Source: an uncultured bacterium (GTDB lineage: Bacteria > Verrucomicrobiota > Kiritimatiellia > RFP12 > UBA1067). From it: DNA of 64,000 nucleotides. A model generated the notes under the pieces. It ran no database searches and was not told where the DNA came from. It saw nothing but the letters and a program-made list of their open reading frames with translations. Shown here one piece after another: positions 23,838-63,953 of the stretch. The stretch's first letter is position 1, and every line of letters starts with the position of its first letter. The DNA lies in assembly GCA_902761275.1 (NCBI GenBank), contig CACWJS010000001.1, positions 11,477 through 75,476 on the forward strand, in the 5' to 3' direction. A program made the translations under genes and the position numbers.

Positions 23838-24956
23838 CTAATTAAACATAAACTCCACGACATCCCCATCCTGCATCTCGTACTCCTTGCCCTCGGGGCG
23901 AAGCGCTCCCGCCTCGCGAGCGCCCTTCTCGCCGCCGTACTTGACGTAGTCGTCAAACGAAACGACCTGGGCCCTGATGAAGCCCTTTTCGAAATCGGTG
24001 TGAATGACGCCGGCGCACTTCGGCGCCTTCCAGCCACGGCGGAAAGTCCACGCGCGGACTTCCTTTGGCCCCGCAGTTAGGAAACTCGCGAGACCCAGCG
24101 TGTGGTATGCAAGCTTGATCGTCCTGTCGAGCGACGACTCCGTGAGCCCGTAGCTTTCGAGGAACTCCTTTGCCTCGGCATCCGAGAGCCCCGCGAGATC
24201 GGCCTCCATCTGGGCGCACACGACTACGCACTCCGCGCCCTCCTTCGCGGCATATGCCTTAAGCGCGTCCACATGTGCATTGCCTTCGCCCGTCACGTTG
24301 TCGTCGGCGACGTTCGCGCAGTAGATGACCTTCTTGTCGGTGAGGAAATGGAGTTCCTTCAGGACGTCGAGAATCGCGTCGCCTTCCTTCCTCGGGAACG
24401 AGCGGACGGATTTCCCCTCCTCGAGATGCTTCAAAAGCGCCGCGCAGGCCTCGGCCTCCGGGCGCATCGCGGGCTTCGCCTGCGCCTCCTTCTTGATGCG
24501 GTCGTAGCGCTTCTGCAGCTGCTCCATGTCGGCAAGGACAAGCTCAGTCTCAATCACCTCGGCGTCGCCCACGGGGTCGATCGGCGCCGACTTGTTGCCG
24601 CCTTCCTGGACATGGATGATGTCGTCGTTCTCGAAGCACCTGACGACGTGCAGTATCGCGTCGCACTCGCGGATGTTCGCGAGGAACTTGTTGCCAAGCC
24701 CCTCGCCCTTGGACGCACCCTTGACGAGACCGGCGATGTCGGTGAACTCGACCGTCGCGCGGATTATCTGCTGCGGGCTTACGATCTTCGCAAGCGCCTC
24801 AAGTCGCAGGTCTGCAACTTCGACAATGGCGGAGTTGGGCTCAATCGTGCAGAACGGGTAGTTCTCGGCCGCCGCCTGCTGCTTCTTGGTAAGCGCGTTG
24901 AACAATGTGGACTTGCCGACGTTTGGAAGACCTACAATACCAACTGAAAGACTCAT
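23838..24956 (-). CDS. ychF: Ribosome-binding ATPase YchF (Obg-family GTPase)
   Basis: G1 GLPNVGKST, TGS C-terminal domain, 372 aa. Confidence 0.9.
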   Translation of the reverse strand: MSLSVGIVGLPNVGKSTLFNALTKKQQAAAENYPFCTIEPNSAIVEVADLRLEALAKIVSPQQIIRATVEFTDIAGLVKGASKGEGLGNKFLANIRECDAILHVVRCFENDDIIHVQEGGNKSAPIDPVGDAEVIETELVLADMEQLQKRYDRIKKEAQAKPAMRPEAEACAALLKHLEEGKSVRSFPRKEGDAILDVLKELHFLTDKKVIYCANVADDNVTGEGNAHVDALKAYAAKEGAECVVVCAQMEADLAGLSDAEAKEFLESYGLTESSLDRTIKLAYHTLGLASFLTAGPKEVRAWTFRRGWKAPKCAGVIHTDFEKGFIRAQVVSFDDYVKYGGEKGAREAGALRPEGKEYEMQDGDVVEFMFN

Positions 24957-25010: not shown

Positions 25011-25952
25011 TTATTCATTATTCTCCCCCTTGTATTCCCAATCGGGATACATGGACTTTAGGACTGCGCGGTAGTACTCCGCGTCCACTGTGCGCCCCTC
25101 CTTCAGGGCGGCGACAAAGAGCTTTTCAATCGGGGCTACGATGCGAGCGCGCGAGGCTTCCGCTAGAAGGCCGTCCGCCTGCGCCCTTATGCGGTTAGCC
25201 TTGGCCAGCGCACGCGTCTCCTTCGAAAGCGCCGGATCGTTCTCGGGTAGCTTTGGCTCCTTCTTGCGCGGGCGAGCCCTGCCGTTCTCGTCGATCTCCG
25301 TGTCCTCGTCGGGAAGCCACGAGAGGTCCGCTATCGTCTTCTCGGGCCTCAGCGCGCGCTCGCGCTCGTCAAGCTCCTTCTGGTAGTCCAAAAGCTCAGC
25401 GTTCAGCGCCTCATAGCGCTGCCGTTCCTCGGCAAGTTCGGCCATCGAGACCTTTAGCTTCAGCGTCTCGGCCTCACGTATCGCCCTTGTCGCCTCGGCG
25501 CGAGCAAGCTCGTCGGCCGCCGCCTGCGCCTTCGCCCGTTCTGCATCGGCGTTCTCCTTGGCGGTCTTCAGTTCCGCGTCCTTTGCCGCCTTGAGGTCTG
25601 CCGCCTTCTTCGCCTCGGCCTCGGCCGTCGCACGTTCGTCGGCGGCAATCGCCTTCTTCTCCGCGAGGTTCTCGTTCTCAAGCTTTAGTTTCTCGTTCTC
25701 CGCCTCCGCCGCTGCAAGGGCGGTCGCTGCGCTCTTCTCCTTTGCCTCGGCCTCGCGCGCGTTCGCCGCGGCAGTTGCGCGCTCGAGCTCGGCCTCGCGC
25801 GCACGCTTCGACGCAATCGTCTCCTCGCTCGCGGCCTTGTCGGCCGCCGCACGCGCGGCGTCGGCGCGCTGCATGGAGATCACGACACCAGAGATGCCCG
25901 CCGCGATGACGGCGACGCATACCGCGACTATGGCCACGATCTTCGCATTCAT
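25011..25952 (-). CDS. Membrane-anchored Ala/Glu/Lys-rich coiled-coil protein (hypothetical)
   Basis: N-terminal TM IVAIVAVCVAVIAAGISGVVI, ~180 aa heptad-rich low-complexity region, globular C-terminus; 4-nt overlap with upstream P-loop gene. Confidence 0.5.
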   Translation of the reverse strand: MNAKIVAIVAVCVAVIAAGISGVVISMQRADAARAAADKAASEETIASKRAREAELERATAAANAREAEAKEKSAATALAAAEAENEKLKLENENLAEKKAIAADERATAEAEAKKAADLKAAKDAELKTAKENADAERAKAQAAADELARAEATRAIREAETLKLKVSMAELAEERQRYEALNAELLDYQKELDERERALRPEKTIADLSWLPDEDTEIDENGRARPRKKEPKLPENDPALSKETRALAKANRIRAQADGLLAEASRARIVAPIEKLFVAALKEGRTVDAEYYRAVLKSMYPDWEYKGENNE

Positions 25953-45328: not shown

Positions 45329-45430
45329 GTTTTGTGTCTCCTTTCTCTTTCAAAGCTTACGTAGTTTAATCTGCTAATACCGATCTCATAAATAAGTAAT
45401 ACCGATGATATATTCCCGCTAATATCCCCT

Positions 45431-45883: not shown

Positions 45884-45914
45884 GATTTTTCCTTTCTGTT
45901 TACGTTATTTGTTC

Positions 45915-48653: not shown

Positions 48654-48666
48654 GTTGCCCTCCGCA

Positions 48667-49161
48667 CTATCTGATGGTTATGTCAAACCGCTTGTTTAGA
48701 ACCGTCTCTACAATCGTCTCTCCGACTGTCCCCGCGCCTCGCTTCACGACTTTGGCCATGTTCCATGCTGGGTCGAAGCTGCGCCAACCGACGACAACCG
48801 TTTCGCCGACAGTGTCGTCCACTGTGCCGGAAACGTAGTCCACAAGATACCGCTCCCCGCAATCGCAGCCGAAAACGAATGCCGTCTCTTCAAACGAAAG
48901 ATCGCCGTTCCCGTCGGCATCGCAGCCAATTGCGACAAGCACCTCGTTTGAGACACAGTTCCCCGCGTCCAGAGTCAGACCGAATTCCCGCACTCTCTCG
49001 GCCTTGACGTGCAGCGGGAGATTTGTCGACACCTCTGTATTCGGCATAACGCCGTCAGGAAGCTGCGGCAGCGGATATTCCGCAGCCGCGCAGACCGTCG
49101 GCGCAAGGTGCGCGGCGACGGCAAAAAGCGTCGTCAAAAGAATCTTCTTCATCCCCTGCAC
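48667..49161 (-). CDS. Small secreted Cys-containing protein (hypothetical), driven by repeat-borne promoter
   Basis: Signal peptide MKKILLTTLFAVAAHLAPTVCAAAEY; 164 aa. Confidence 0.55.
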   Translation of the reverse strand: MQGMKKILLTTLFAVAAHLAPTVCAAAEYPLPQLPDGVMPNTEVSTNLPLHVKAERVREFGLTLDAGNCVSNEVLVAIGCDADGNGDLSFEETAFVFGCDCGERYLVDYVSGTVDDTVGETVVVGWRSFDPAWNMAKVVKRGAGTVGETIVETVLNKRFDITIR

Positions 49162-49287
49162 ACTCCTTTCTCCTGAGAAGGCGCCGACAGTATACCATCA
49201 AAGAGGGGATGTCAACTTATCGTAAACTTTTCGTTTGCGGGAAAAACGACGCAGGAGTTATCGTCTGCGATAACTTCATGGCACACG
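49120..49287 (-). promoter_or_regulatory. Promoter/5'-UTR/signal-peptide-start cassette, direct-repeat copy 1
   Basis: Minus strand: TTGACA ...(15) TATACT, ~36-nt leader with AAGGAG, ATG; ~85% identical to 55379-55541. Confidence 0.65.
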
Positions 49288-49431
49288 GCGAGGCAAGGCG
49301 CCTCTTAAATTAGGAGATATGCGGAGCGCGGCAAATCCACCGCGCAAGTCTGAAGCAACTTGCAAGCTGGTTCTTTCATAATGGTTTGACGGCGGCTGTC
49401 CCTCCCACCTCATTGCACCCTGTCCCAATCA

Positions 49432-50256
49432 TCATTTGAATTCATCCAGCCACTTGGGGATGTAGCCGGTGGTGTTTTCAAGATACTGAGCAAGAGTCCG
49501 CACGCCGCGAATGACGTTCTCCCGCGTTGAATAGCCGCGTTCGTAAAGGAGCATCTGCCCCTTCAAGTCTGCATTCATGTACCGCCGCGTCAACCCATTC
49601 TCGGACTCAATCTGATTAATTATCATTTCCTCGAGCTCCTTGGCGACCAATGCGAAATCCTCGCGTCCCTCGTCTGTAAACTTCCGGATGCATTTCCTTA
49701 TCATGGCCAACGCATCTGCCTCAAAATATGCCCCTTGCCTCGGAACCAATACTGCGGAGCGCTCAATATCGCCCAAGAGATTCATTCCCTCAATGCAATC
49801 GATAACGCATGCCTTAAACTCTTCCGGTGTTGCATACGAGCGCGACAAAATCCCGCCCTTAAACTCGCGGCTAATGGCGCCAGCGCAAGGTCTTACTATG
49901 TCGTAATAGTGTCCGGCGGATATACCCTTCATCCTCTCCGAAACGGTCGCGACGCAATCCTTCATGCCCCGAACATTCCCATTCAGAAGGTTTGTCGCGG
50001 CAGCCGTCCATACTGATTCCAATTGCGCACGTTCTGCATCGCTCACCCATTCAGGATGATAACGCAAGAGATCGCCGGGTGGGCAATCTTCGTCGATGCT
50101 GTTGTTTATCCATTCTTTCAACGGCGCTGCCGCATCTGGTGTCGATGTCTCATTAGAAGCCGACTTAACATGCTTCGGCATGAGAATACGACGAACGATG
50201 AATATGCCGCATGCAGCAACGATCAGCAATGTCAGTGTCAATAATGTCTTTTTCAT
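49432..50256 (-). CDS. Membrane-anchored/lipoprotein-like hypothetical protein
   Basis: MKKTLLTLTLLIVAACGIFIV N-terminal anchor; 274 aa; immediately downstream of paralog B. Confidence 0.5.
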   Translation of the reverse strand: MKKTLLTLTLLIVAACGIFIVRRILMPKHVKSASNETSTPDAAAPLKEWINNSIDEDCPPGDLLRYHPEWVSDAERAQLESVWTAAATNLLNGNVRGMKDCVATVSERMKGISAGHYYDIVRPCAGAISREFKGGILSRSYATPEEFKACVIDCIEGMNLLGDIERSAVLVPRQGAYFEADALAMIRKCIRKFTDEGREDFALVAKELEEMIINQIESENGLTRRYMNADLKGQMLLYERGYSTRENVIRGVRTLAQYLENTTGYIPKWLDEFK

Positions 50257-50257
50257 G

Positions 50258-52930
50258 TCAATGCACCCATTGAATGGTTTTGCCGTCTACTATAATCCGG
50301 CAGAATCGACCGCGCGACATGGTATGCCCGTGTTTCTCGATCGATGCCGTTCCATCGTCGGAAATGGAAAAAATTTGCTGATATGCGTCTTGTTTCCCGC
50401 CTATCAACAAGATTCGTGATAAATTGTCATTGTCAGCATTGATCTCATGCTCTGCCTCACGAACCCCGTGCCTGTCGTCGCCGTCAAACCGCATTCTGAC
50501 CCACCCTATGGGGATGTCCCAAACGAGACGTCCAGCGGACCAATTCTCATATTCCAAGGGATGTCCGGCTCTATCAACTGTCCAATAGTTATTTGTCGCT
50601 ATTCGAGTCGCCATGCCCCAACCGTAGTCAAATATACGCCAGTGCGTCCATTGCCCAGTGTAGTTTGTCGTTGCAAAATAACCAGATGGCATATTGGTGT
50701 GAGTGCATGGGATCTCGGACACCATGATTCCGTGGAACGACACGTTCATCGGGCCGACATAGTTCGTAATCGCAAGCAAAGTTCCCCCGACTGATCCCGG
50801 AGAACGACAAGGCGCATAGTATGAATCCCAGAAAGCATTTGGGCTTATTATTTCCTTCGGCTCGACAATTGTCATCTCAGGCCTATACTCAGCCTCGCGG
50901 CACACGACTTTCAGATTTGGCGTCACCGAGTAGATTGGGCACGCATATATTTTCCCCGCAGAATCTATGATATTGTCATAATGATACAGCTCGTTTGTAT
51001 CAATGCGCGTCAGCTGAACACTTGTCGCCACACTTTCGGGGAAACTGCGAAACTGAACCCGTTCCCCTACGCCATAGACATGGCGGTTGGTGCATGGGTT
51101 TTCGGGTGCTTCCCAGACCGCGGCGAGTTCCACGCGAACAGACGTGGCATGGCAGTCGTTTGTAATCGACTCTCCAGTGACATTGTCGGTCAGCGTAGCG
51201 ATAACCTCGATGTCGTCAGCCGTATCGCTCGCCGACAGCCCCACGTAGTTCATTGCATACGTTATCGACTGCCTTGCCGGAACAGACACCGACTGCGAGG
51301 GGAAGGCAGGACCCGAGTTCTTCTGTAACTTGCCAAGGTTCGTCGCGGACACGGACAGCACGGCGCCATTAGTTCCGCCGTTGGCACTGATAGTCAGCAT
51401 CGTCGCCGTCGAGCGCCGCGAAACCCACTCGCCAGGCGAGTTTTCGTATCCATCCTCGAATATGACCGCATCCTTGCTGAAATTGGCAGAGACAGATGCC
51501 GCATACGGAGCGGCCGATGGTGTCGGCGTTGGGTCTGGCGCATCTTCCCAGCATCCACACGAGGCATAACCAATGAACAACTTGGAATACCCTTCCCACA
51601 GCGCAGTCGTTTCAAAACTATGATACACTCCTCCGCAAGTACACGTCAAGGAACACGACCACTGCAATATACCGTCAACAACCTCCCGCGAGCAACACCC
51701 TCCGAGACAGGCGATAATCGAGGGGCGTACATTAATCGGCGAAGATGCCGCGCCATAGTTGCCTGTAGACCCTGCGCTTCTCGTCTGTATTCGCACCAGG
51801 GAAAGTTCCAAAGGCAAAGAAACGGTCAGGCGATTCTCGGCGTTCGTCACGATCTCCGCGTATTCGCTCGACACGGCAGAGTAGTCAATCGGCAAGTCGC
51901 TTTCGACTGTGTATGTCGCGCCAGCGAGAAGCGGGACGTGGCAGACTTGGTTTGTCCGCGCAATGATCACATGGTCGCCAAGGTCGCTCGCTCCATCGCA
52001 AGTGACGCGGATCGTCGCAACTCCGAGAACCCCTGTCACCGAAAGATCAAGCAAGTAGTAGGCATCGGGGTTCGCGTTTGGCGGCAAGGCATTTGCCACG
52101 CCAAAGAAATCTCCGTCGCAGCTTGTAGGATTCGCATCTCGCTCGTTATGGATTCCGTCATCATCCCAATCGTCGGGGTTGACGCGGCGGCAGACTGTCT
52201 CGACCTCGTTCGAACGCGTTACGAAGTCGCCGTTGGGAGAAAGGACGATCTGCGCATTTACGGGGCTGTTCGTGTCGCCGTCGAGGAAGAAGTTTTCCCA
52301 TGTTAGAACGCGGCTGCCATCATCGCCATCAAGCTGCCAGAACTGGCTTTGGCCTGGAACAGCAAACATCGGGACGCCGACAGCGCAGATTTCGTGCGCA
52401 GCATCTCGCGGAGTTGGGCGAATGCGACCATCGATGAAATACCAAAACGATGAAAACGCCTCGTCGTTCGTGCCGAGCGGGAATGCCCAATCGCCAAAAT
52501 CAATCCTGTTGTTTCCAAACGACGATGTCGCGCCGTGGATGTGCCAGTTCCCGACAAGCGCTGCGTTCGTCGGCATCGCATACGAAACCGCCGCGTTAGT
52601 CGTGACGCTCTCCACTCGCCAACCGCGAGAAATGTCATCAATAGTCGCCTGGACAGGATTCACAAGGTTTATAAGATTACCAATCCCTAACAATCCTGTC
52701 AATCCTGTCTGAAAAGAAGGCCCCTGCATCATCTGCGGCTGATTCATATTCGGCGGCACATTGTTCGTCTTCTGCGCATCGAGCGACGTGCCGACGGCGA
52801 GAAGCGAAAGCGCGAGGAGTAGCGAAGCCGACAGTCTGCGAAGTGCACGAACATTGATACGAACAAGGAACGCGAATATGCAGACGCACTCGGCAACGAC
52901 AAAGCAACTCCCAAGGAAATGCCAGTTCAT
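50258..52930 (-). CDS. Giant secreted Cys-rich protein, paralog B
   Basis: 890 aa; NPDDWDDDGIHNERDANP; Cys module CLGGCCSREV...CSLTCTCGG; collinear with paralog A. Confidence 0.6.
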   Translation of the reverse strand: MNWHFLGSCFVVAECVCIFAFLVRINVRALRRLSASLLLALSLLAVGTSLDAQKTNNVPPNMNQPQMMQGPSFQTGLTGLLGIGNLINLVNPVQATIDDISRGWRVESVTTNAAVSYAMPTNAALVGNWHIHGATSSFGNNRIDFGDWAFPLGTNDEAFSSFWYFIDGRIRPTPRDAAHEICAVGVPMFAVPGQSQFWQLDGDDGSRVLTWENFFLDGDTNSPVNAQIVLSPNGDFVTRSNEVETVCRRVNPDDWDDDGIHNERDANPTSCDGDFFGVANALPPNANPDAYYLLDLSVTGVLGVATIRVTCDGASDLGDHVIIARTNQVCHVPLLAGATYTVESDLPIDYSAVSSEYAEIVTNAENRLTVSLPLELSLVRIQTRSAGSTGNYGAASSPINVRPSIIACLGGCCSREVVDGILQWSCSLTCTCGGVYHSFETTALWEGYSKLFIGYASCGCWEDAPDPTPTPSAAPYAASVSANFSKDAVIFEDGYENSPGEWVSRRSTATMLTISANGGTNGAVLSVSATNLGKLQKNSGPAFPSQSVSVPARQSITYAMNYVGLSASDTADDIEVIATLTDNVTGESITNDCHATSVRVELAAVWEAPENPCTNRHVYGVGERVQFRSFPESVATSVQLTRIDTNELYHYDNIIDSAGKIYACPIYSVTPNLKVVCREAEYRPEMTIVEPKEIISPNAFWDSYYAPCRSPGSVGGTLLAITNYVGPMNVSFHGIMVSEIPCTHTNMPSGYFATTNYTGQWTHWRIFDYGWGMATRIATNNYWTVDRAGHPLEYENWSAGRLVWDIPIGWVRMRFDGDDRHGVREAEHEINADNDNLSRILLIGGKQDAYQQIFSISDDGTASIEKHGHTMSRGRFCRIIVDGKTIQWVH

Positions 52931-53028: not shown

Positions 53029-55257
53029 TCATAAAGCAACATGCCACCCACTAATGTCATCATAGAGTTCTTGCAATGATCTTATTGACATGTCCACCAA
53101 CGGTTCGTACATAAATGAATTCAAATGTATTTGCTCAGGCGTCATTAAAGAAACCTTATTCAAAATAGTGCGTTCTGCTTCCGTGCCAAGATTCTGCGAG
53201 CGAAACGACTTAAACAACTTCCCAAATCGACTCCGGCCACTTACACGAGGCTGGCCCCTCTCTATTAGCATTGCTTCCATAAAGGACTCTGCCATTAAGC
53301 GTATAGTCATTGCAAGAACTACCTTGTTCTCAAGTTTGATTTCGTCAAGCTGCCCTTGTCCCAGCTCTTCTGATATTCGCCTAGCCTCGGCGAACAATAT
53401 GTCAACCCACGGCATATCCATATTCGGCCAAAACAGGTCTATATTCGAAATCCGCGGCAATGTTTTGAGATAAACATTTTTGACTTCACTTGCAAGCACT
53501 GACCTTGTAATCCGCAGCATGGGGTCTTCATGCTTGATGTCATGCAAGCATGATGTTAGAAGCAAATAATCTGAGGAACTATCGCCTTGGATATACTCTA
53601 TTAGATTACGGACAAATGGCAGCATAGCCAACAATATTCTATTAGTGGGGTTCGCAATCCAAGTTTGGAGAAGATTTCTTAAGAAGTGCCCTCCCGACAG
53701 TTTTATCTCCCTGGTTAATGGATCCTTTGTAGCCATAAATACATTCTGCGCTCTTTTCAAGCCTAGCCGGGAACATACTGTCCTGTAAAAATCTAGATTG
53801 TGAGTTAATATAATCGTACGAACCATGGAGTTCATACTTAAGTCCTGAATATATTCAATAATGGCATATTTGTTTTTATAGTCAAATGAATCAGCCACAT
53901 CATCAAAGATTAAAAGCAATGGACTCGTTTTGCGCACTTCAATTTCAAACAGAATCTGCAACAAACAAAACGCCCTACGCTCCCCCTTGCTTAACACGTC
54001 GCCCAATAAAGCGTCCGAAGTGCGCTCGACAGGGACTGCATTATTAGAATCATCGCAGTAATAAAACTTCAGCTTGGCATCTTCATGATTAACAAGAACA
54101 TTCTGCTGATTCTCAATCTCAACTTTAAATGGAGCATGAAATCTGTCATTAAATAAATCAATGATGTGTCTCCATATGGCCTGCTCTTGTCCCGCGCGAT
54201 TTAGAATATTCCGGAGCGTAGACTTTCTTTGTCTGTACAAATCAATCAATTGTCGATATGATTCTGCGACCCTTCGCAAATAAGAATACCAAACCTTCTT
54301 GCGAAAAGCATCATAATCCAAAAGATCAACAAGGTACTCGTTGTGTGCGAATATTGCCGCCTTAAAAGCCCTTAATTCCTTATTTTTCCCAATAGCGCCA
54401 TCAATCTTATCAAAGACTCTCCTAACAGCGGGCTCGTTGACCACTCGCGCTAATTCTCCATCGTATTTACTCTTGAACTCTTCGTATGTATTTAGATTAA
54501 CGCCACTATCTAATGTAATTTTATGTCCAACCTTGAAAAAAGAATTATCCTTTAAACTCTTCGAAATTGCATCTGCCTGCTCCGTACCAAATACAACATT
54601 GCCGACGACCTTAAAGAAATCCGACTGAGTCAAAACATTATTGTACTCCCTAAAATACTCCTCTATGCTCTGCCGATGTTTTTGAAGGAACTCACGGACT
54701 TTACCGCCTCTATCAAAAATATCGTTATACTTAAAAGAGTATTCGGGGGGAGCAACGTCGTCAATTCCATCAAATATGCGCTCTAAAATCTCTAAATCTG
54801 TCTCTTGACTATTAACAGCAAATGCCTCTCTCAATTCAACACTACAGTCAGAACTTTGCGAAACAGTTTTTAACTCGCCAAAAAATCGATCTAGCGCAGC
54901 ACTCAATTCTTGATATACAGCATCATATTCACGCTTCAATTCTTCGCTGGCAAGAAATGCGGAAACACTCTTTTCAGCAGAAACAAAATTCTCCGGGTCA
55001 ACAACATATACACTTTCAGGGGCAAGAGCCGCACCATTCCCTTCACGAAAAATTGCCACGCTTTCCCTATCCGGATAAACCAAATCGCCAGGAGCAAGCC
55101 CACGAGCATATGCCTGGAACGTCTTGGTTAATGATGTTTTCATTGTCCCGTTAGGCGCATAGACAACAGAATATGGGCAATCCGACGTAAACTCAAACTC
55201 ATGTTCAAGTTTGCCAATCCCATAACAGTTTTCTATTTGCATTTTTATTTTCGACAT
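53029..55257 (-). CDS. AT-rich island ATPase: split ABC/SMC-type (AAA_15/AAA_21-like) N-domain with degenerate Walker A plus ~260-aa unassigned C-terminal domain (candidate single-gene defence system)
   Basis: N-term KMQIENCYGIGKLEHEFEF...VVYAPNGTMKTSL (Walker A with Gly to Met); Walker B-like LLLIFDDVADSFD; H-loop-like TIILTHNLDF; long helical insert between; low-GC codon usage. Confidence 0.6.
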   Translation of the reverse strand: MSKIKMQIENCYGIGKLEHEFEFTSDCPYSVVYAPNGTMKTSLTKTFQAYARGLAPGDLVYPDRESVAIFREGNGAALAPESVYVVDPENFVSAEKSVSAFLASEELKREYDAVYQELSAALDRFFGELKTVSQSSDCSVELREAFAVNSQETDLEILERIFDGIDDVAPPEYSFKYNDIFDRGGKVREFLQKHRQSIEEYFREYNNVLTQSDFFKVVGNVVFGTEQADAISKSLKDNSFFKVGHKITLDSGVNLNTYEEFKSKYDGELARVVNEPAVRRVFDKIDGAIGKNKELRAFKAAIFAHNEYLVDLLDYDAFRKKVWYSYLRRVAESYRQLIDLYRQRKSTLRNILNRAGQEQAIWRHIIDLFNDRFHAPFKVEIENQQNVLVNHEDAKLKFYYCDDSNNAVPVERTSDALLGDVLSKGERRAFCLLQILFEIEVRKTSPLLLIFDDVADSFDYKNKYAIIEYIQDLSMNSMVRTIILTHNLDFYRTVCSRLGLKRAQNVFMATKDPLTREIKLSGGHFLRNLLQTWIANPTNRILLAMLPFVRNLIEYIQGDSSSDYLLLTSCLHDIKHEDPMLRITRSVLASEVKNVYLKTLPRISNIDLFWPNMDMPWVDILFAEARRISEELGQGQLDEIKLENKVVLAMTIRLMAESFMEAMLIERGQPRVSGRSRFGKLFKSFRSQNLGTEAERTILNKVSLMTPEQIHLNSFMYEPLVDMSIRSLQELYDDISGWHVAL

Positions 55258-55572: not shown

Positions 55573-56685
55573 CTACCAAAGATGCAGCATTGTTATGAGG
55601 ATAAGAACACCGAGGAGTGCAAAGACGAGGCCAATCGCGATCTTCGCGGGGATCACGTTGCGCGACGACCATTTCGCCATCTGGAATGCGTCGGTCGTCT
55701 TCGAGGCGAGGACGAACACGGCGACAAGCGGAAAGACGAACGCAAGATTGTAGAGCGCGAGCAGAGCGAAGGAACGCCATGCCCCAGGCTCGCGAGATAT
55801 GAGTGCGAGGACAGGCACGTAGACCTGCCCCGTGCAGAGTGCGTCGAGCAGCGTCACGAGGAAGGCGCAACCGAATCCTGCGAGGACAACCGCCGGGCCG
55901 CTCCAGCTCTCCATCGCAATCTTACGTATCAGCACCTTCACCCCCTCCGGCAGCTTCAGAGTCACGACGGAGAAGACGGGTATTTTGCGGAAGCGCAGCG
56001 CATCGCGGAAACTCAGGAACGACAGTACGAAAAGCGAGAGCGCAAGAAGGGCCATCACTACGTCGTGGACTACGCGGAGCCCTTCTAACACCTTCAAGGC
56101 CTGCATGAGCCCAAGGCCCATCAGCATGTATGTGACGAACGTTCCGGCGCAGAAAGAAAGTCCGCCGAGGATTCGCGCCTTGCGCTTGCGCCCGCCGATG
56201 GCGAGGATTCCGGCAAGGGAAATCATGATCGCAAAGGAACAGGGGTTGAATCCGTCGACGATTCCCGCGAGGACGACGGTCGGAAGTGTCCAGCGCGACG
56301 CAGCGGCGGCGGTCTTCGACTCGACGGCCATTCCAGTAACGGGAATGTTTATCACGGGGCTTTCTGGGTCGTCGCAAAGAATCTGGACGTGCTTGGAGAA
56401 CTCGCCTGGGAGCATGGCCTTGAGCGCAACCGAGAGTGTCGCAGAAGACGACGGTGCGATGCACATAGCCGACAGCACGGCGTCAGTGCCGCAGCAGCCC
56501 TTAACCTGCGAGACGGCGACGGGCGAGGACGAGGCGTTGCGTATCTCGACCGACTTCGTCGCCGCCTCCCCCGCGGCTATCTCGCCGAACGCCACGCCCT
56601 CCGGCGGAACGGCAAGGCGAGGCGCGGAGAGGGCGGAGAGAATCGGGAGACAACATAGACAACAGAAAACAACTATTCTTCTCAT
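55573..56685 (-). CDS. DUF1573 (ASPM-like beta-sandwich) fused to CcdA/DsbD-family thiol:disulfide transmembrane domain
   Basis: Signal peptide; KSVEIRNASSSPVAVSQVKGCCGTDAVL (DUF1573-like); TM domain with GFNPCSF and LDALCTGQ Cys pair typical of CcdA/DsbD. Confidence 0.7.
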   Translation of the reverse strand: MRRIVVFCCLCCLPILSALSAPRLAVPPEGVAFGEIAAGEAATKSVEIRNASSSPVAVSQVKGCCGTDAVLSAMCIAPSSSATLSVALKAMLPGEFSKHVQILCDDPESPVINIPVTGMAVESKTAAAASRWTLPTVVLAGIVDGFNPCSFAIMISLAGILAIGGRKRKARILGGLSFCAGTFVTYMLMGLGLMQALKVLEGLRVVHDVVMALLALSLFVLSFLSFRDALRFRKIPVFSVVTLKLPEGVKVLIRKIAMESWSGPAVVLAGFGCAFLVTLLDALCTGQVYVPVLALISREPGAWRSFALLALYNLAFVFPLVAVFVLASKTTDAFQMAKWSSRNVIPAKIAIGLVFALLGVLILITMLHLW

Positions 56686-56726: not shown

Positions 56727-57746
56727 TTAGTCAGCACGTTCGTTGATTCGTCGTATCGCCGCTTCGACTGCGGCCGAGCGGCGGGAGTCGCCCTTGAAGC
56801 GCTCTATAAGCGCGATGTCATCCGCGTTGCCGAGAAGCCCGATGGACCCGATGCAGACCGTGTCGAGAACTGCGTCGCGAGACGGCGAGGACAGGGTTTC
56901 GCGGAGAACCGGCAATGCGTCGGCAAAGCCACGCTCCCCGGCGAGCTGGATTGCGGCGATTCGCGCGGCGTGGTTGGCTTCCGGCTTGCACAAGGCAAGC
57001 GCAAGCCCCTTCAGCTCCTTGTCCTGCGACGGTGTCGCGCGGGCGTCTTCGGCAAGAGAGTACAGCGCCGTTCCCGCGTAGGGCTGCTTCGTCCTCTTCG
57101 CCGCCTTTACGAGCACGGCGCGGACGCGCAGGCGCCCCTTTTCATCAAGTTCGTCGAGCATCGCGCCGAGATGCTGAATGCAGTAGTCGAGGACGGCAGG
57201 CGGATGTGGGTGAGTGGGTGAGTTGAGAGTGGAGGAGTTGTGAGTTGAGATGCCGCGTCCTTCAAACATCACAATCAAGGTTTCCGCAAGTCCTTCCACT
57301 GGCGGCTCCTGGCTGCGGAGGAGGTTCATCACGTCGTTCTTGAGCGCGGCGACGCGCTCGACGCGCATCGCGTCGTCTGCCGAGCGCAGATACGTCAACA
57401 GCGCCTCAACGTCATCCTTCGGCAAGTCGCGCCTCCGCGCGATCGACCTCAACGCGTCGTTTCGCGCCTCATAGCGGTCGGCGGTCGCGGAATCCGCCCC
57501 GCAGACAATTGCGACGGCTGCGGACGCTTCGACGACTTCGTGATCCGATGGCTCTGGCTTGCGCTCCACCGCCTTGACACGCACCTCGGCGGGCGTCTGC
57601 ACAACCGGCACTTCCGGCAACGGCACCGGTTGCAGCCGCTCTCGCAAAGCGACCACAACCGCCGCCGCAATCAGCAGCACAGTCCCGCAGATAGCAACTA
57701 TCTTCCATTTTGTCATCTTACAATTCGCAGATACCCACAGTTTCAC
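56727..57746 (-). CDS. Membrane-anchored HEAT/PBS-lyase-like repeat protein (start possibly MTKWKIV at 57716)
   Basis: N-terminal TM IVAICGTVLLIAAAVVVAL; helical repeats ending ...LLGNADDIALIERF...AAVEAAIRRI; low-complexity linker STLNSPTHPHPP. Confidence 0.6.
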   Translation of the reverse strand: MKLWVSANCKMTKWKIVAICGTVLLIAAAVVVALRERLQPVPLPEVPVVQTPAEVRVKAVERKPEPSDHEVVEASAAVAIVCGADSATADRYEARNDALRSIARRRDLPKDDVEALLTYLRSADDAMRVERVAALKNDVMNLLRSQEPPVEGLAETLIVMFEGRGISTHNSSTLNSPTHPHPPAVLDYCIQHLGAMLDELDEKGRLRVRAVLVKAAKRTKQPYAGTALYSLAEDARATPSQDKELKGLALALCKPEANHAARIAAIQLAGERGFADALPVLRETLSSPSRDAVLDTVCIGSIGLLGNADDIALIERFKGDSRRSAAVEAAIRRINERAD

Positions 57747-57815
57747 TTCACTCGCCTCACATCATTCGGCCTCGACCGCTCAAGCATGGACTGTCAACTC
57801 AGACCTTTTAGCATA

Positions 57816-58244
57816 TCAATCTGTAGTCCATATTCCTCTTGCATTTTCATAGTGAAGGTCATATCCTTTGAATGGGAAGGATCTTGGTCTATGCTCTTTC
57901 ATTATTCCAGAGTAAGAAGTTTTTCTTGAAAACCGATACTCGTCAAAAGAAATCCATGCTTCTGATAACACAACCCCAAGAAATATTACCAGCAGGATCT
58001 TGGATGCGGCGAAATCGAAAATACCAGCGCATGACGATTGCTTTACCGCAATGCGGACAAAGCACAACAGGACAGACACTGTAAACACAACGCCAGTTGC
58101 AAGCACGACGCCGACCAATGCGCCTCGCATGCTAAAGCCAATAATCTCCGTCATGCATCTCCCTTCTCCATACATTTTGAATGTCACCAATAAAATGACA
58201 ATCTGCAACATACTTCTTAATAGATTTCCGCAATTATCTGACAT
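57816..58244 (-). CDS. Putative immunity protein for the RHS C-terminal toxin (small membrane protein)
   Basis: Start MSDNCGN at 58244 overlaps RHS stop (58234-58236) by 11 nt; 2-3 TM helices; AT-rich like the RHS tail. Confidence 0.45.
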   Translation of the reverse strand: MSDNCGNLLRSMLQIVILLVTFKMYGEGRCMTEIIGFSMRGALVGVVLATGVVFTVSVLLCFVRIAVKQSSCAGIFDFAASKILLVIFLGVVLSEAWISFDEYRFSRKTSYSGIMKEHRPRSFPFKGYDLHYENARGIWTTD

Positions 58245-61200
58245 ATGGAGGCTCCTCTCCACCTCGTGGTTCCTTAGGGGGGCCACCAAATTCGCCAGGA
58301 GGGACTATATATGGAGGTTGTTTCCCTATTCCTGATGCTATGTGATTAACACATGTTTCCATTGAATAATAGTTAACCGCACACTTTATTTTCACACAAG
58401 TACTTCCATCAACTTTGTATGTGGTGCCGCCAATGACAAAGCCATCAACAAGAAGCCATTTCCCTGCCAGTCCTCCGTATGCCGGGTTGCTGTATTCGTC
58501 AATTATCCAAATCCGCAACAATCCTTTGCAACTGTTATCAATGAAGAGTTTTCCTCTACCAAATTTGAAGCAACATTGGCATAAAGCTAGTCCCAAAAGG
58601 TCGAAATTACCTATAGGATTATTACCAGCAAATGCAATTTTCTGGACTACTTTTTCCCCCGAGGCTGAATCTCCACTGAGCAATTGGTCAAATATTGGAT
58701 CTAAAGACAGCCAACGCCCAGTAGCCATATGGAAATGCCGAAAATTGAAGTATAATAAACCCAAAGGGCAATCACTATATTCAGAACTGAAACGCCAAGG
58801 ATTACAATCGCCATCAATCATCCTAATGCACGTTCCAAATGGAGCATAATCGTAATGATACATATTTTTTGACGCCACCTCAGACACATTCTTATTCCCA
58901 TCATGAAAATAATACGATGCGCTTGCATTGTTCCGCCACACAAGCGGACGTGTCGCGACTGGTTCCGTCGGGTCCCACACATAGACATTTCCGTTGTTGT
59001 CGGCAATCTGAAGATAGCCCGCACAGGTGAAGAACTGTGAGTTTTTAACCACCCTGCGCCCCATACGATCGTATGACATGACGATGTTCGTGTCACCATT
59101 CGACCACTGAACGGGGCGGTTCTCGCCGTTATATATGACAGACCAGATGCCATTATCTGCTTTGATTAGGGTTTGATTGCCGTCATCGTCGTATTGTGGA
59201 CCGAAAACAGCATTTTCATTTGCAACAACACTGGTATTCGATATTAGCGTATACTGGTTCAGACAGTTGGCAACATATTCTGTGCGATTCGTGGCTTCCA
59301 ACGACCACAAACGATTGCCTATACAATCATATTTGTAGACATATTGATAATTCCTATCTACTGACACGACGGCGTTAGTCAATTCACCTCGGATGTTGTA
59401 GCCATACGAAATGACCTCTTCCTGTTCAAATGAGGAACCTGAGTGCGAGCATGAAACACACCTTCTCGTCGCACCGTAAGTATAATCGTACCGTGAAATC
59501 ACATTCGTTGGCGTGGTGTTGCAAACTTGAAGCAGCTGGTTGTTGGCATCGTATTGCCATGACGCGGTCATGCCATTGGGGTATGCGAGCAGGGATTTCA
59601 AATCTGAACCGGGAAGATACGACCACACAAATGGGGTCTCAGAACCGGCGGCAAGCATAGACGCAATACGCCCTGTTGCGTGATCATAACCTATCACAGT
59701 CTGCCATTCACCATTGAACGCATAGCCAGCATCGCGGCCGAAGTTATCCCAATGGCGAATGATTGTATTGGTTCCGGCCACGCCAATGACGGTTTCGTTG
59801 GTGAGAGAACCGAAAGAGTCGTAGAGGAAGGTGGTTGTGCCTGCGGCGTCGTGAGCTTCGGTCTGGCGGCCAATGGCATCGTATACGAGAGAAACCGTGG
59901 GTGTATTGTCAGAGTAGACTGTGTTAGTGAGGCTGCCCCATTCGTCATAGGAGTAGTCTGTGACGATGCCGCGAGCCCAGATGCGCTGAGAGAGTTTGCC
60001 GTCGGGAATGTAGGTGTAGGATGGACCCTTGCCGTCGGCGTATACCTTGTTCGTCATCGCGCCGGAGGCGATGTCGTAGAGCCAGGTGGTGACATCACCT
60101 GAATTGGGGCCGAGCGATTCGTTTCGGTACGTCATCATGGTCGCCTTATTACCGAAGATGTCGTAAGTGTAGCGCACGGGATAAGTCGCACCGCCTTCGT
60201 ATGTCTTACGGCCGCGAAGGTCGTATTCGTAGACCGTAGCGTTGCCAAGAGGATCGGTGACGGAGGCAAGATTTCCAAACTGGTCGTAGGCATAGGATGT
60301 ACGATTACCAAGCGCATCAATGGAAGCAGAGCGCTGGCCGAGGGCGTTGTACTCGGTGTGGCGTGTGTTGCCACGTCCGTCGGTATTTGCAATCTGGCGA
60401 CCGAGGGAGTCGTATGCGACTGTGTTGGTTACGGCAGAAACAGACACATCCATCAGCGAGACGCCGTAGCGAGAAATCGAAAGCGGCTTGTTGGTCGCGT
60501 AGGGAAGCGTCTGACGCGAAGCGACAAAAGGCGAAGAAACCAACATTTCGTTTTCTGTCATGTTGCCGCGAATATCGGTGGAGCGGGAACGCGCGGGAGT
60601 GGCGGCGGATAGGCCGGTAAGCTGTTGCGCAGAAGAGGTGACGAGTGGCGCGATGGCTGAGTCGGAGCAGGAGACGATGTTGGTTTGGGTGAGCCAAACG
60701 AAGGAGTCGGAGAAAACGAAAGAAGAACGCGTTTCGGTTTTGCGCCATTCAGACGGGCAAGCAGGGGCGCTTGCCCCTACCAAGCGCGTCGTCGCGATAC
60801 GGTTGCCGAGCGTGTCGTAGGTGTACTCGGTAGTCGGCTCGTAGTCGGCAGAGGTGGAGACGAGGCGACCGTAAGAGTCGTAGGCGTGAGTGGTGGCGAG
60901 AACAGCACCTCGGAAGCCGGAGCGTTCTTCACAAAGGGTCTGGCCAAGCATGTTCTCGTAGCGCTTGGTGAAGCGAGGCGAAGAAGCAGTTTCGCCCTGC
61001 ACGATGCGATACCAGCGAGTTCCGTCTGACAACATACCGGAGGTGTGGAACTCGGGAGTGATGGCGGTGCCGGTGATAGAGAGATTGTCTCCGGACGCGG
61101 AGCGAGAATAAACGACCGTCGAAGTGTTGGGGTGTTGGACGAACACGGTTCGCCCGTCTGGACTGTAGGTCGTCGTTGTTGTGTTGCTGAGAGTGTCGAT

Positions 61201-63300
61201 GCGGGAGATGGTGCGGCCGAGTTGGTCGTAGCGCGTGCGGGTTGCTGGCAGGCCGACATGAGCAGCGTAATTGGTTTGCCAAGTGGCAGTCTGGCGGCCG
61301 AGGGCGTCATAACGATAGCAGGTCGTGAGCCACGTGACATTGGTCATATCGAGCGGAATCAAGCGCGAAAAGGCGATCACGCGGCCTTCGTCGTCGTAGT
61401 CCCAGGTCGTGGTCGAGCCGTCGGGCTGAACTTCCGAAACCTTATGGCAACAGTCCCACGCCGTGGTCGTGACCTGACCGGCGAGGTTTTCGGATGTGAT
61501 GCGCTTGCCCTCGAAGTTGTATGTCATGCGGTTTCTAGCTATAGTATACCATATTCCGTCGATGTACGCCTCGGTACGCGTTTCGATTTCCTCGCCGCGA
61601 GCATTGGTAATCGTGATGTCGCGGGTCGTCTTGCCAGAGACGGGCGCGGGGGACTGCTCGTGAAGGTGGGTGACGGTGCGAACCCAAATGTTGGATGAAA
61701 GCTCATAATCGTAGAGGTCGAGCTTGCCATCCTCGTGGCGGATGGAGGCGACAAAGCCGGAGCGGGCGTCGTTCGCAACTACAGGGTAGAACGCCGTCAC
61801 CGTGCGGAGAACGTTGGTGCCGCCGTAGGCCGCGCCCTGCTCGCCAACCCGCTCGACGATGTTGGTAAAAGGCAGATAGGCATAGTATGTGCGCTCGCAT
61901 TCGATGCCGTCGAGCTTCTTCACGACCGTGCGCGGGCGGGTGTCGACGGGGAGCGCCGGGTCGCTCGGATCGACGGGGGTGTAGTCGTAGGTAGTCGTCT
62001 CGGTCATCATATCAGGACCGGAACGCGTCTCTGAGGTCACACGGTCAAGGTTGTCGTAGGCGTACTGTATGAGCAATCCCGACTGGCGCTTTTCAGTCTT
62101 GACCTGCCCCTTGCCGTTGCCGGAAGTGTAGTATGTCCAAGTCGTAGTGTCGGTTACGCCGCCGAAGCCCTCCACGCGGTTCGTCATCGCAAAGCCCCAT
62201 GACTCCCACTTGTAGTTGGACTCGCGCCGCGCGAGCACGGCTCCGCCGGGCGACCTCGTCGTGCTGACGATCTGCGCCGCCCGCTCGTCCTGCGTGTAGC
62301 GCCCCTTCTCCACCCTGACGCCAGAGGGCCTGGTCAGCGACCACTCCCCGAGGGCGTAGTCGAACTGGTACGTCTCGGGTTCGCCGCCGCCGCTCTGGAT
62401 CGTGACGACGGCCCGCTTCCCGCCGTTGCCGGAGCGGAGTGAAAGACGCCTGACTGGGCTGGACTGCGGTAGGGCGTACAGCCCCGTCGCGGCGTCCTTC
62501 GCCGGCGGCTCCTGCAGCGCGTAGACCGCGACGTCGTAGCCGGAGAAGCCGGCGGCAGGCGTCACGTCGGCAAGGCGCGAAGGCGTCAGGAACTGGCGAA
62601 CGCCGTTGGAGTCGTAGACTATCTCGACGCCCATGTCGGCCGGGGTGACGGTTCTGCCGCGCGCGTCGGTGACGGAGACGAGCGCCCCGAGCGCCCCAGT
62701 CGCGTTCGTCGCGAGGAACCGGCGGCGGGTGCCGTCGCCGACGTAGAGGTCGTAGTAGACCGGGCCAGACGCAGTCGCCCAGCCCTCCGCGTCGACCATC
62801 TGGAGCCGCTCGTCCATCTTGACGTGGACGCCCGGATCGGGCCTCCCGAGGGACTCGCCGTTCGCGAAGACGAAGTGGACGGGCTCGCCGTTCGGGTGGG
62901 AGAAGACGACCTCCGCCGGCGTCGCCCCGTCCGGCATCGTCTTCTGCCCGAGCCGCTTGAAGGTGTAGCCGCCGAGGACGGCGTAGAGTGACTCCGGCGT
63001 GAATACCGACGGCGAGCCGCCGTCCGCGAACACCTTGAGCGAACACTCGAGCGAGCCGGTCCACGGCGTCGTCACGCCGAGGCCGAGCCATGCCTTTATG
63101 CACCCGTTGTCGACGCCACTGTCGCCACCAACGGGGCATCCGCAGGTGTTGTTGGCCGGGTTGCACTCGGAAGGCGGATTAGCCTGCGTGGTTGCCCCAC
63201 CGAGGAGCACCGCCGGCAGAAGCGCCAACGCCAACGCGGCAAAGCCGACATGAACCCACGACTTCTTCGTCCGATCTGCGGCCACTTTGGAATTTTTCAT
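58234..63300 (-). CDS. RHS/YD-repeat polymorphic toxin with short Cys-rich C-terminal toxin domain
   Basis: 1688 aa; signal peptide; dozens of YD repeats (YDALGR, YEYDLRGRK, YTYDIFGNK, RYDYTYG); RHS core (YYFHDGNKNVSEV...YAPFG...NPWRFSSEY...YFNFRHFHMATGRWLSLDP) ending NNPIGNFDLLGL (NPxxxxDxxGL cleavage-type motif); ~115-aa variable tail. Confidence 0.9.
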   Translation of the reverse strand: MKNSKVAADRTKKSWVHVGFAALALALLPAVLLGGATTQANPPSECNPANNTCGCPVGGDSGVDNGCIKAWLGLGVTTPWTGSLECSLKVFADGGSPSVFTPESLYAVLGGYTFKRLGQKTMPDGATPAEVVFSHPNGEPVHFVFANGESLGRPDPGVHVKMDERLQMVDAEGWATASGPVYYDLYVGDGTRRRFLATNATGALGALVSVTDARGRTVTPADMGVEIVYDSNGVRQFLTPSRLADVTPAAGFSGYDVAVYALQEPPAKDAATGLYALPQSSPVRRLSLRSGNGGKRAVVTIQSGGGEPETYQFDYALGEWSLTRPSGVRVEKGRYTQDERAAQIVSTTRSPGGAVLARRESNYKWESWGFAMTNRVEGFGGVTDTTTWTYYTSGNGKGQVKTEKRQSGLLIQYAYDNLDRVTSETRSGPDMMTETTTYDYTPVDPSDPALPVDTRPRTVVKKLDGIECERTYYAYLPFTNIVERVGEQGAAYGGTNVLRTVTAFYPVVANDARSGFVASIRHEDGKLDLYDYELSSNIWVRTVTHLHEQSPAPVSGKTTRDITITNARGEEIETRTEAYIDGIWYTIARNRMTYNFEGKRITSENLAGQVTTTAWDCCHKVSEVQPDGSTTTWDYDDEGRVIAFSRLIPLDMTNVTWLTTCYRYDALGRQTATWQTNYAAHVGLPATRTRYDQLGRTISRIDTLSNTTTTTYSPDGRTVFVQHPNTSTVVYSRSASGDNLSITGTAITPEFHTSGMLSDGTRWYRIVQGETASSPRFTKRYENMLGQTLCEERSGFRGAVLATTHAYDSYGRLVSTSADYEPTTEYTYDTLGNRIATTRLVGASAPACPSEWRKTETRSSFVFSDSFVWLTQTNIVSCSDSAIAPLVTSSAQQLTGLSAATPARSRSTDIRGNMTENEMLVSSPFVASRQTLPYATNKPLSISRYGVSLMDVSVSAVTNTVAYDSLGRQIANTDGRGNTRHTEYNALGQRSASIDALGNRTSYAYDQFGNLASVTDPLGNATVYEYDLRGRKTYEGGATYPVRYTYDIFGNKATMMTYRNESLGPNSGDVTTWLYDIASGAMTNKVYADGKGPSYTYIPDGKLSQRIWARGIVTDYSYDEWGSLTNTVYSDNTPTVSLVYDAIGRQTEAHDAAGTTTFLYDSFGSLTNETVIGVAGTNTIIRHWDNFGRDAGYAFNGEWQTVIGYDHATGRIASMLAAGSETPFVWSYLPGSDLKSLLAYPNGMTASWQYDANNQLLQVCNTTPTNVISRYDYTYGATRRCVSCSHSGSSFEQEEVISYGYNIRGELTNAVVSVDRNYQYVYKYDCIGNRLWSLEATNRTEYVANCLNQYTLISNTSVVANENAVFGPQYDDDGNQTLIKADNGIWSVIYNGENRPVQWSNGDTNIVMSYDRMGRRVVKNSQFFTCAGYLQIADNNGNVYVWDPTEPVATRPLVWRNNASASYYFHDGNKNVSEVASKNMYHYDYAPFGTCIRMIDGDCNPWRFSSEYSDCPLGLLYFNFRHFHMATGRWLSLDPIFDQLLSGDSASGEKVVQKIAFAGNNPIGNFDLLGLALCQCCFKFGRGKLFIDNSCKGLLRIWIIDEYSNPAYGGLAGKWLLVDGFVIGGTTYKVDGSTCVKIKCAVNYYSMETCVNHIASGIGKQPPYIVPPGEFGGPPKEPRGGEEPPYVR

Positions 63301-63317: not shown

Positions 63318-63953
63318 TCAGTTATTGGAATATATCAGACTTCCGTCCTGGTAGATGTAGGTGCGGTGACAGACCGAGGTTGTCACGCCGCGCGCGCGGA
63401 TGAAACGGATCGTGTAGTGACCGTCGGCGTCGAAGTCTTCCGCCGTCAGGGTCTTGGTGCGCGTCCCGTCCTCGAACGCCACACCGGCTACGAATATGGA
63501 GAGCGTGACCGTCATCCCCTCGGGGACCGAACCGAGAAGGAGCGATATCTCCACGAGCTGCGAACCGTCTGGATATGTATCGGCAATGCGGTAATATGTC
63601 CCGTTGTCCGCCCACACGGGCGATACCTGCACGGCGTCCGATATCGCACCATCCTCGGCGAGCCGGGAGACCATCCCGAGGTCGCGGTCGGCATGGGTCA
63701 GGAGCGAAAGCGTCACGCCGCCGCCAGATGTTTCAGCATCGACCACGAGCTCGGAGTCGTGCTCCAGGACGTTGCGCGGCGAAAGCTGCGGGCAGGCGAG
63801 CGTCTGCCTGGCGTCGAGGAGGACCGCGGGGTTGCGCTTCGGGAAGCGCGACTGGACAACTTCGACAAGCGCGTATGCAGTATCGTCAAAAAGGAGCCCG
63901 TGGTGCGTCACCGCAACGAGGAAGAGCCCCGCCGTTTCGAAGCGGTACGGCAT
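63318..63953 (-). CDS. Hypothetical protein upstream of RHS gene (N-terminus may lie near window end)
   Basis: 211-aa ORF with protein-like composition; no recognisable motif. Confidence 0.4.
   Translation of the reverse strand: MPYRFETAGLFLVAVTHHGLLFDDTAYALVEVVQSRFPKRNPAVLLDARQTLACPQLSPRNVLEHDSELVVDAETSGGGVTLSLLTHADRDLGMVSRLAEDGAISDAVQVSPVWADNGTYYRIADTYPDGSQLVEISLLLGSVPEGMTVTLSIFVAGVAFEDGTRTKTLTAEDFDADGHYTIRFIRARGVTTSVCHRTYIYQDGSLIYSNN

Follow-up and report, generated by a model that had tools for sequence, protein, structure and literature searches.

The RHS gene and its shell

We have analysed a stretch of 64,000 nucleotides (the window, to which all positions given without a contig handle refer) from an uncultured bacterium of the Kiritimatiellia (contig CACWJS010000001.1), focussing on a gene for an RHS/YD-repeat polymorphic toxin of 1688 amino acids (aa) on the minus strand (58234..63300) and on a small gene that follows it directly, which we regard as its immunity gene. 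The open reading frame (ORF) call for the large gene is backed by family matches. The Pfam family RHS_repeat (PF05593) matches the protein in seven stretches (E 1.3e-30), the YD repeats are also recognized by the NCBIfam model YD_repeat (TIGR01643, E 2.9e-23), and a further NCBIfam model, NF041261, likewise matches. Among solved structures, phmmer recovered the RHS cocoons 8cp6 (Tse5, the best PDB sequence match, E 3.8e-22), 7q97 and 8h8a. The protein thus has the shell of multiple YD repeats that characterizes RHS polymorphic toxins. Its first ca. 40 residues, MKNSKVAADRTKKSWVHVGFAALALALLPAVLLGGATTQA-NP (63181..63300, minus strand), have the sequence of a Sec-type signal peptide, with a putative cleavage position, and neither Pfam nor NCBIfam detected a PAAR, VgrG or any other N-terminal domain.

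The shell is closed by an RHS-associated core, or C-terminal plug, at aa 1485-1571 (58588..58848, minus strand), where TIGR03696 (Rhs_assc_core) aligns over its full model (1-76 of 76) with 44.1 bits against a cutoff of 32.5, and where there is also a protease-like motif. The original prediction for this DNA, made from the letters and the ORF translations, had described just such a YD-repeat protein with an RHS core, and this description was confirmed by all of these models. The shell ends with ...NNPIGNFDLLGL at aa 1571, so the C-terminal tail starts at aa 1572. The same prediction placed here an NPxxxxDPxGL-like site for autoproteolytic release. The reference aspartyl-protease motif of RHS proteins is DPXGX18DPXG followed by the cleavage site (PMC10684867), and what we find in the plug is LDPIF-x29-FDLLGL, which keeps both Asp and the terminal GL but has Phe in place of the first Gly and Leu in place of the second Pro. 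What the plug contains is a degenerate form of the reference motif. Homologues vary in a similar manner (D[PAYL]xG). Tse5 is cut after the equivalent GL, at L1168/I1169 (PMC10684867), and by analogy with Tse5, RhsA and TcC we predict cleavage after L1571 by aspartyl autoproteolysis.

A C-terminal domain from an unannotated family

The tail proper (aa 1572-1688; 58237..58587, minus strand) is a domain of 117 aa with seven Cys, which alignment, structure prediction and Cys covariation describe as a beta-rich putative toxin domain with six core Cys. The original prediction, which gave it ca. 115 aa, held that it could not be assigned to any known toxin, and every search agreed. There were no Pfam or NCBIfam families at E<=1, and a sequence profile search of the PDB returned E 0.53 at best (matches such as UPS1 and EscI, all with E>=0.53, were discarded). 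When 50 members of the family were compared with Pfam at E<=10, no toxin family appeared and the only sporadic match was DUF5666 (PF18914), found in three of the 50 with a best E of 0.072, none of them a whole-domain match above the Pfam gathering score. DUF5666 repeat proteins are also weak matches of the tail profile, and hhalign aligned the two with a probability of 90.7 (E 1.2e-6) over only 23 columns. What is shared is a 23-residue beta-hairpin, (A)DGF/W-V-I-G-G-x-T-[YF]-K-V-D-x-x-T. Beyond this one alignable hairpin, DUF5666 differs from the tail in having neither the Cys framework, nor the Pro-rich C-terminal strap, nor a toxin context.

A word-indexed protein search found only seven relatives of the tail. 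An exhaustive search with a hidden Markov model built from four sequences recovered 71 representatives (clustered at 50% identity) at E<=1e-3, 54 of them at E<=1e-10. The proposal of a new toxin domain therefore stands as far as annotation is concerned, but the domain is not unique to this genome, with at least 71 such representatives. The family has members in bacteria of the PVC group (Planctomycetes, Verrucomicrobia, Chlamydiae), in Shewanella and in one metagenome-assembled genome (MAG) of the Actinomycetota. In every member inspected the domain sits at the extreme C-terminus, in many cases following the end of an RHS core (for example P0023, an RHS protein of 1985 aa), in P0010 after an eCIS_core domain (PF13699) and in P0047 after a C-type lectin; other carriers are short lipoprotein-like or transmembrane-anchored forms. 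Polymorphic-toxin cargo is marked by just this arrangement of one C-terminal domain on many carriers (Zhang et al. 2012, PMC3482391), and because the tail is always C-terminal on such diverse carriers we read it in this way. Judged by its sequence relationships, it is a new family of putative toxins inside a known kind of system, and the curated families tested include neither the tail nor the putative immunity protein.

Two residues, D1619 (D48 in tail numbering) and K1629 (K58), are invariant in the trimmed alignment of 50 sequences, and C1574, G1583, C1591, E1602, G1620, F1671 and P1678 (C3, G12, C20, E31, G49, F100 and P107) are conserved in >=90% of the members. Each of the six core Cys is found in 86-96% of the members. 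Two optional Cys, at positions 18 and 41, occur together 19 out of 19 times (r=1.0), and those at positions 78 and 91 also co-occur (r=0.73). Covarying Cys of this kind behave like disulfide partners, and the core would be held by three conserved disulfides.

AlphaFold, given the 50-sequence alignment, produced five concordant models of the tail, the best with a pLDDT (predicted local distance difference test) of 89.5 and a pTM (predicted template modelling score) of 0.82; this run replaced an earlier one on four sequences, which was unreliable (only one good model out of five). The model has seven beta-strands, a single helix of five residues and no hydrophobic helix, and even the Pro-rich C-terminal segment (residues 91-117) is modelled confidently, with a mean pLDDT of 93-96. 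The sequence itself is hydrophilic, without any hydrophobic stretch. Foldseek comparisons of the model gave no significant match in the PDB (best E 0.54, TM-score <=0.32) or in BFVD (best E 0.32), so that the tail had no match among known toxin families by structure either. Matches to domain 4 of cholesterol-dependent cytolysins, the membrane-binding domain of these proteins, were among the insignificant ones (E>1, TM-score <=0.32) and were set aside. A full-text literature search with the motif GGPPKEP returned no paper. Sigma-70-like sites inside the tail coding region reached only 9 of 12 consensus positions and were not used as evidence, and no terminator was found.

The downstream gene and its association with the tail

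The second gene of the pair (57816..58244, minus strand) encodes 142 aa with three transmembrane helices predicted from hydropathy. Its ATG at 58244 lies within the end of the RHS gene, so that the two overlap by 11 nt at the RHS stop codon, and this start is backed by the alignment with homologues. The membrane protein and the overlap had both been noticed in the original prediction and are as it described them. In the alignment of homologues, invariant residues lie in a YGxGRxMxE loop and in a C-terminal region, SExWI-x-DE-xxF ... RPRxWP ... TD. The N-terminus and loop 2 carry a net positive charge and, because of the positive-inside rule, we predict that the conserved loop 1 and the C-terminal region face the periplasm. 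No match was found with PADLOC, and the NCBIfam match to MPN214, at E 0.0096 and with 15.8 bits where the cutoff is 250, was dismissed as noise.

The association of this gene with the tail can be followed from both sides. Starting from the tail, we fetched loci by similarity from genomes and metagenomes (with the four-sequence alignment for the latter) and found an immunity homologue directly downstream in L001, L009, L010, L019, L020, L022, L023, L024, L026, L032 and L033. These homologues measure 128-143 aa where the ORF is complete and have ca. three transmembrane helices. L001, a contig of 100 kb, illustrates the distances involved, with a tail homologue of 57% identity followed by a protein of 139 aa that is 34% identical to the 142-aa ORF (E 4e-17). 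Starting from the immunity protein, the reverse search gave 44 unannotated proteins. Five of their contexts were inspected and in three (L035, L036, L037) the tail was directly upstream; of the other two, one had an unrelated protein of 228 aa upstream and one was a decayed orphan within an array of RHS fragments. In L036, RHS-core-end modules (...YYGYRYYDPxTGxWxSRDP...) are repeated in a classic orphan array. The C-terminal toxin and the immunity gene differ from module to module, and one of the modules is the tail/immunity pair described here. Downstream of more divergent tails there are other membrane proteins, of 213 aa and 169 aa and with three transmembrane helices, and in one case (L030) the ORF in this place encodes an ankyrin-repeat protein whose N-terminus is hydrophobic and signal or lipoprotein-like. 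The conservation of the downstream gene beside the tail, on which the idea of a toxin-immunity pair depended, was thus seen at many loci. Because immunity homologues directly follow tail homologues at ca. ten independent loci, the comparison supports a toxin/immunity reading, with the 142-aa ORF as the putative cognate immunity protein, co-inherited with its toxin.

A related metagenome contig (L040, positions 1581-3575) holds another array, in which an RHS-core-end fragment with a different Cys-rich C-terminal toxin is accompanied by several small ORFs. One gene there is a frameshifted copy of the immunity gene, the intact form of which is 80% identical to that of the window, and it illustrates the decay of orphan immunity genes.

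A mosaic of host-like and low-GC DNA

The guanine plus cytosine (GC) content of the tail is 0.435 and that of the immunity gene 0.417, against 0.614 for aa 1-1199 of the RHS protein, 0.628 for the next gene and 0.603 for positions 1-42000 of the window. The AT-richness reported for the last ca. 350 nt of the RHS gene and for the downstream gene is therefore real, but it is not limited to them. Along the whole RHS gene the GC content falls stepwise (0.71, 0.61, 0.55, 0.45 and 0.40), with GC at third codon positions going from 0.9 to 0.35, and the last part of the shell, aa ca. 1200-1571 (58588..59700, minus strand), is already at 0.455.

The orthologous locus in a Verrucomicrobia MAG (L016) helps to interpret this step. 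The gene upstream of the RHS gene is 75% identical at the nucleotide level in both, and most of the shell (59701..63237, minus strand; GC 0.614) is orthologous, at 71% nucleotide identity, by blastn and by the identity profile. When protein identity was followed in windows of 100 aa it stayed at 60-83% up to aa ca. 1200 and then fell abruptly to 28-40%, at the point where the blastn match ends (59723) and the GC content changes. The L016 protein ends in an unrelated C-terminal toxin; in other words, the two orthologous shells have different tips. Further downstream, L016 still has a remnant of 24 residues from the C-terminus of the tail described here. The recombination breakpoint was probably near 59,700, inside the YD shell (aa ca. 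1200) and not at the cleavage motif, and because the breaks in identity, blastn match and GC content coincide, we take ca. 59,700-57,750 to be the block replaced in this lineage. This low-GC block measures ca. 1.95 kb, covers the toxin and immunity genes together with the last ca. 370 aa of the shell, and would have been acquired by recombination from a lineage with lower GC content. In other lineages, the shell is only 25-30% identical while the tail is 53-57% identical, and the low-GC shell segment does not travel with the tail, which implies that the tip is also exchanged on its own.

There is also evidence of more recent movement. DNA ca. 99% identical to the tail and immunity gene (57569..58515, minus strand, from nucleotide comparison) is present in the metagenome contigs L002-L008, L021 and L033. 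The orphan toxin copies are truncated at their 5' ends, with junctions at 58515, 58450 and 58420 (tail residues ca. 25, 46 and 56), and every contig that reaches the immunity gene has it in intact form. The block shared with L003-L006 extends 247 bp past the immunity stop codon, into the 5' end of the next gene of the window, and because it reaches that far these copies must derive from a locus like this one. A search for orphan copies elsewhere in the genome had been suggested; such copies were found, 5'-truncated, in metagenome contigs, and the 64-kb window has no second copy of the tail, the immunity gene or the RHS gene. A lost toxin with a retained immunity gene is the decay pattern to be expected, and it supports a recent exchange of the pair. 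At the level of sequence, the 99%-identical orphan copies establish that the toxin/immunity part is still mobile in the population. The cassette swapping claimed in the original prediction is thus supported, by the different tip of the L016 orthologue and by nearly identical DNA in other contexts, as is, by the decay pattern, the freshness of the exchange; its place has to be moved, from the cleavage motif to aa ca. 1200.

The orphan tail copies in L002-L008 are fused in frame to the start of an ORF of ca. 58 aa resembling a signal peptide, M(N/K)N(R/H)AK(S/T)AL.LALAIVGGIAAG(M/L)RCDAS...RPAAYTVK..TEGSDPF. This leader lies on a unit of ca. 270-330 bp that is repeated within the contigs at 88-92% identity (for example L003 1545-1850 and 2723-2990; L002 124-411 and 992-1300). 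It was also seen at L043 10001-10309 and L044 3382-3627. A protein search with the leader yielded 229 short proteins (54-102 aa), of which one is named as belonging to a Kiritimatiellae MAG. Long contigs carry a single copy, which sits between housekeeping genes and is followed by accessory cargo (AbiEii, IpgD-like). The leader unit may mark a cassette boundary or the end of a mobile element. In L002-L006 a run of tandem octamers of the GTTGAAA(A/G) type stands just before the leader units, and the same repeat is found in the window at 24963-24996, between the ORFs 23838..24956 and 25011..25952. This points to a regulatory or element-associated motif in common and to related organisms as the source of the window and of L002-L006.

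Possible mode of action and alternatives

We consider it likely that the locus encodes an RHS polymorphic toxin with an exchangeable, beta-rich tip that acts on the cell envelope and with a cognate immunity protein of three transmembrane helices, in a block acquired by recombination, and that the host is a high-GC bacterium of the Verrucomicrobiota/Kiritimatiellae type. Four of its elements, namely the RHS architecture, the C-terminal cargo family, the co-inherited membrane partner and the recombination mosaic, are shown by the comparisons above. In the Sec-exported protein, the YD-repeat shell (aa ca. 40-1571) would encapsulate the 117-aa domain and free it via aspartyl autoproteolysis past ...FDLLGL(1571). 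The tail would then fold and act in the envelope of the target cell, either in the periplasm or on the outer side of the inner membrane, where it would bind or modify an envelope component instead of making an alpha-helical pore, and the immunity protein, anchored in the inner membrane, would capture it at the membrane surface. We favour extracytoplasmic action because the six core Cys and the covarying pairs look like disulfide partners, action on the envelope because the immunity protein and the other linked downstream proteins are membrane-embedded or lipoprotein-like, and a mechanism other than a helical pore because the tail is hydrophilic and all-beta in the model.

Several observations weigh against this reading. 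The protease motif is degenerate (DPIF, DLLG), with 33 residues from Asp to Asp as against 22 in the reference. The topology of the immunity protein comes from the positive-inside rule only. The two invariant residues (D and K) and the near-invariant E hint at a function but allow no catalytic or binding assignment. Moreover, four species of Shewanella (L011-L014) carry a standalone, membrane-anchored homologue of the tail (186 aa) that has lost most of the core Cys, among them the C64/C69/C79 cluster, and has no immunity homologue beside it (for example L011 9785-10345 and 10388-11011). Its chromosomal surroundings are of a housekeeping kind and conserved, with an Abhydrolase_3 esterase on one side and a Peptidase_M15 D-Ala-D-Ala dipeptidase on the other. 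This form could be a domesticated version, or it could suggest that the fold serves above all as a binding module, and a non-toxic role of the tail fold is possible.

The membrane location of the partner would also be accounted for if the tail depolarised the membrane or formed pores in it, as Tse5-CT and the ionophoric CdiA-CTs do, and the three-transmembrane protein blocked its insertion or conductance. Polytopic membrane immunity is typical of pore-forming colicins, of Tse5/Tsi5 and of ionophoric CdiA-CT/CdiI pairs (PMC10684867, PMC11630599), and the 142-aa protein, with three transmembrane helices conserved across its family, is of this small polytopic kind. However, the tail has no hydrophobic or amphipathic helix and no glycine zipper, as a helical pore would require; it is hydrophilic and apparently disulfide-locked, the model is all-beta bar the one short helix, and the similarity to the cytolysin membrane-binding domain was insignificant. 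On this balance a pore former seems improbable to us. A cytoplasmic enzyme (nuclease, deaminase, ADP-ribosyltransferase or similar) that has diverged too far to be recognized, with a membrane protein that is unusual or not an immunity protein at all, would be in keeping with most characterized RHS C-terminal toxins, which are cytoplasmic enzymes (Zhang et al. 2012, PMC3482391), and with the invariant D and K and near-invariant E of the family. We think it very unlikely, given that no Tox/Ntox or other toxin family of Pfam was matched even at E<=10 over 50 members, that no sequence or fold match was found in the PDB, that disulfides, as implied by the covarying Cys pairs, are not formed in the cytoplasm, and that the downstream proteins linked with the tail either sit in the membrane or begin with a hydrophobic, signal or lipoprotein-like segment.

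The Shewanella homologues, membrane-anchored and syntenic but without an immunity gene, raise the question of whether the tail might be a non-toxic binding or adhesion module, a small lectin-like beta domain whose downstream gene is a linked but non-protective partner. The fusion of one homologue to a C-type lectin and the local similarity to the DUF5666 hairpin would fit with this. Yet the tail of the window occupies the exact position of an RHS toxin, where the orthologue has swapped in another C-terminal toxin, the same domain recurs on an eCIS_core carrier and as one of the modules of an RHS orphan toxin/immunity array, and decayed copies retain the downstream gene intact, as expected for the retention of immunity. 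We therefore give this explanation hardly any credit, and retain a toxin with envelope action as the preferred one. A bolder version of the latter, that a structurally new, disulfide-locked beta fold works in the periplasm and kills by binding to or cleaving a component of the envelope, e.g., a peptidoglycan precursor, instead of making a pore or attacking nucleic acids, and was domesticated in Shewanella as the membrane-anchored protein syntenic with the D-Ala-D-Ala dipeptidase, is a speculation that we hold to be unlikely; if true, it would define a new mechanistic class of interbacterial toxin common to RHS and eCIS carriers.

RHS proteins are a general delivery chassis and the novelty lies each time in the payload. 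Specialists expect RHS tips without a known function, and this tail is one of many uncharacterized ones. It forms with its partner, however, a coherent pair of families (ca. 71 toxin and ca. 44 immunity representatives) without Pfam or NCBIfam annotation, and a confident AlphaFold model with no Foldseek neighbour in the PDB or BFVD, a disulfide framework and a wide range of carriers make it a reasonable target for characterization. If it does act on the envelope by something other than a helical pore, it would represent a new antibacterial mode of action and a new type of immunity. The locus is in addition a clean natural example of nested recombination within an RHS shell and of toxin decay with the immunity gene kept.

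Neighbouring genes

Immediately upstream of the RHS gene (63318-63953, minus strand) the window contains the C-terminus of a large protein. Its orthologue in L016 (14-3454) is 1146 aa or longer and contains bacterial TSP3 (thrombospondin type 3) repeats, seven in number. The gene is conserved beside the RHS gene in both genomes; its product may be a secretion or surface partner of the RHS protein. Downstream of the cassette, with host-like GC content, are genes for a 339-aa HEAT-repeat protein with an N-terminal transmembrane segment (56727-57746, minus strand) and for a 370-aa protein with a DUF1573/Ig-like N-terminal domain and a hydrophobic C-terminal region, multi-transmembrane by eye (55573-56685, minus strand). 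Beyond them lies the gene of a 742-aa AAA_13/SMC_N ATPase (53029-55257, minus strand; GC 0.40-0.45), an end-to-end match (E 1.6e-219) to PDC-S46, a candidate defence family of PADLOC. The ORFs of 890, 274, 912 and 635 aa next to it (43421-52930) had no Pfam or PADLOC match. The region of this ATPase may be a defence island.

Comparison with known systems

One of the closest parallels is Tse5 (RhsP1)/Tsi5 of Pseudomonas aeruginosa (PDB 8cp6; PMC10684867), which shares with this locus the RHS cocoon and a C-terminal plug that contains two Asp of catalytic type and a ...GL cleavage motif (here predicted). In both, a small toxin of ca. 115-150 aa precedes the gene for a small membrane protein that confers immunity (here putative). 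The differences concern the delivery, the motif and the tip. Tse5 is delivered by the type VI secretion system and has no Sec signal, whereas here there is a Sec signal and no PAAR/VgrG context; the motif reads DPIF-x29-DLLG instead of DPXGX18DPXG; and the tip of Tse5 is a helical, hydrophobic pore former, while the one described here is all-beta in the model, hydrophilic and disulfide-rich, with no similarity in sequence or fold. A small polytopic immunity protein in the inner membrane is likewise found with ionophoric CdiA-CT/CdiI pairs and pore-forming colicins (PMC11630599). These have helical, hydrophobic toxins, the carrier of the former is CdiA instead of an RHS protein, and no homology was detected.

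Classical enterobacterial Rhs loci consist of a GC-rich core, an AT-rich core extension and downstream orphan toxin/immunity modules (Zhang et al. 2012, PMC3482391). The locus described here resembles them in the sharp GC contrast between shell and tip, in the orthologous cores with different tips and in the truncated orphans that keep the immunity gene. It differs from them in that the break lies within the shell, ca. 370 aa upstream of the cleavage motif, and in that the fusion partner of the 99%-identical orphans is a multi-copy leader resembling a signal peptide instead of an RHS core fragment.

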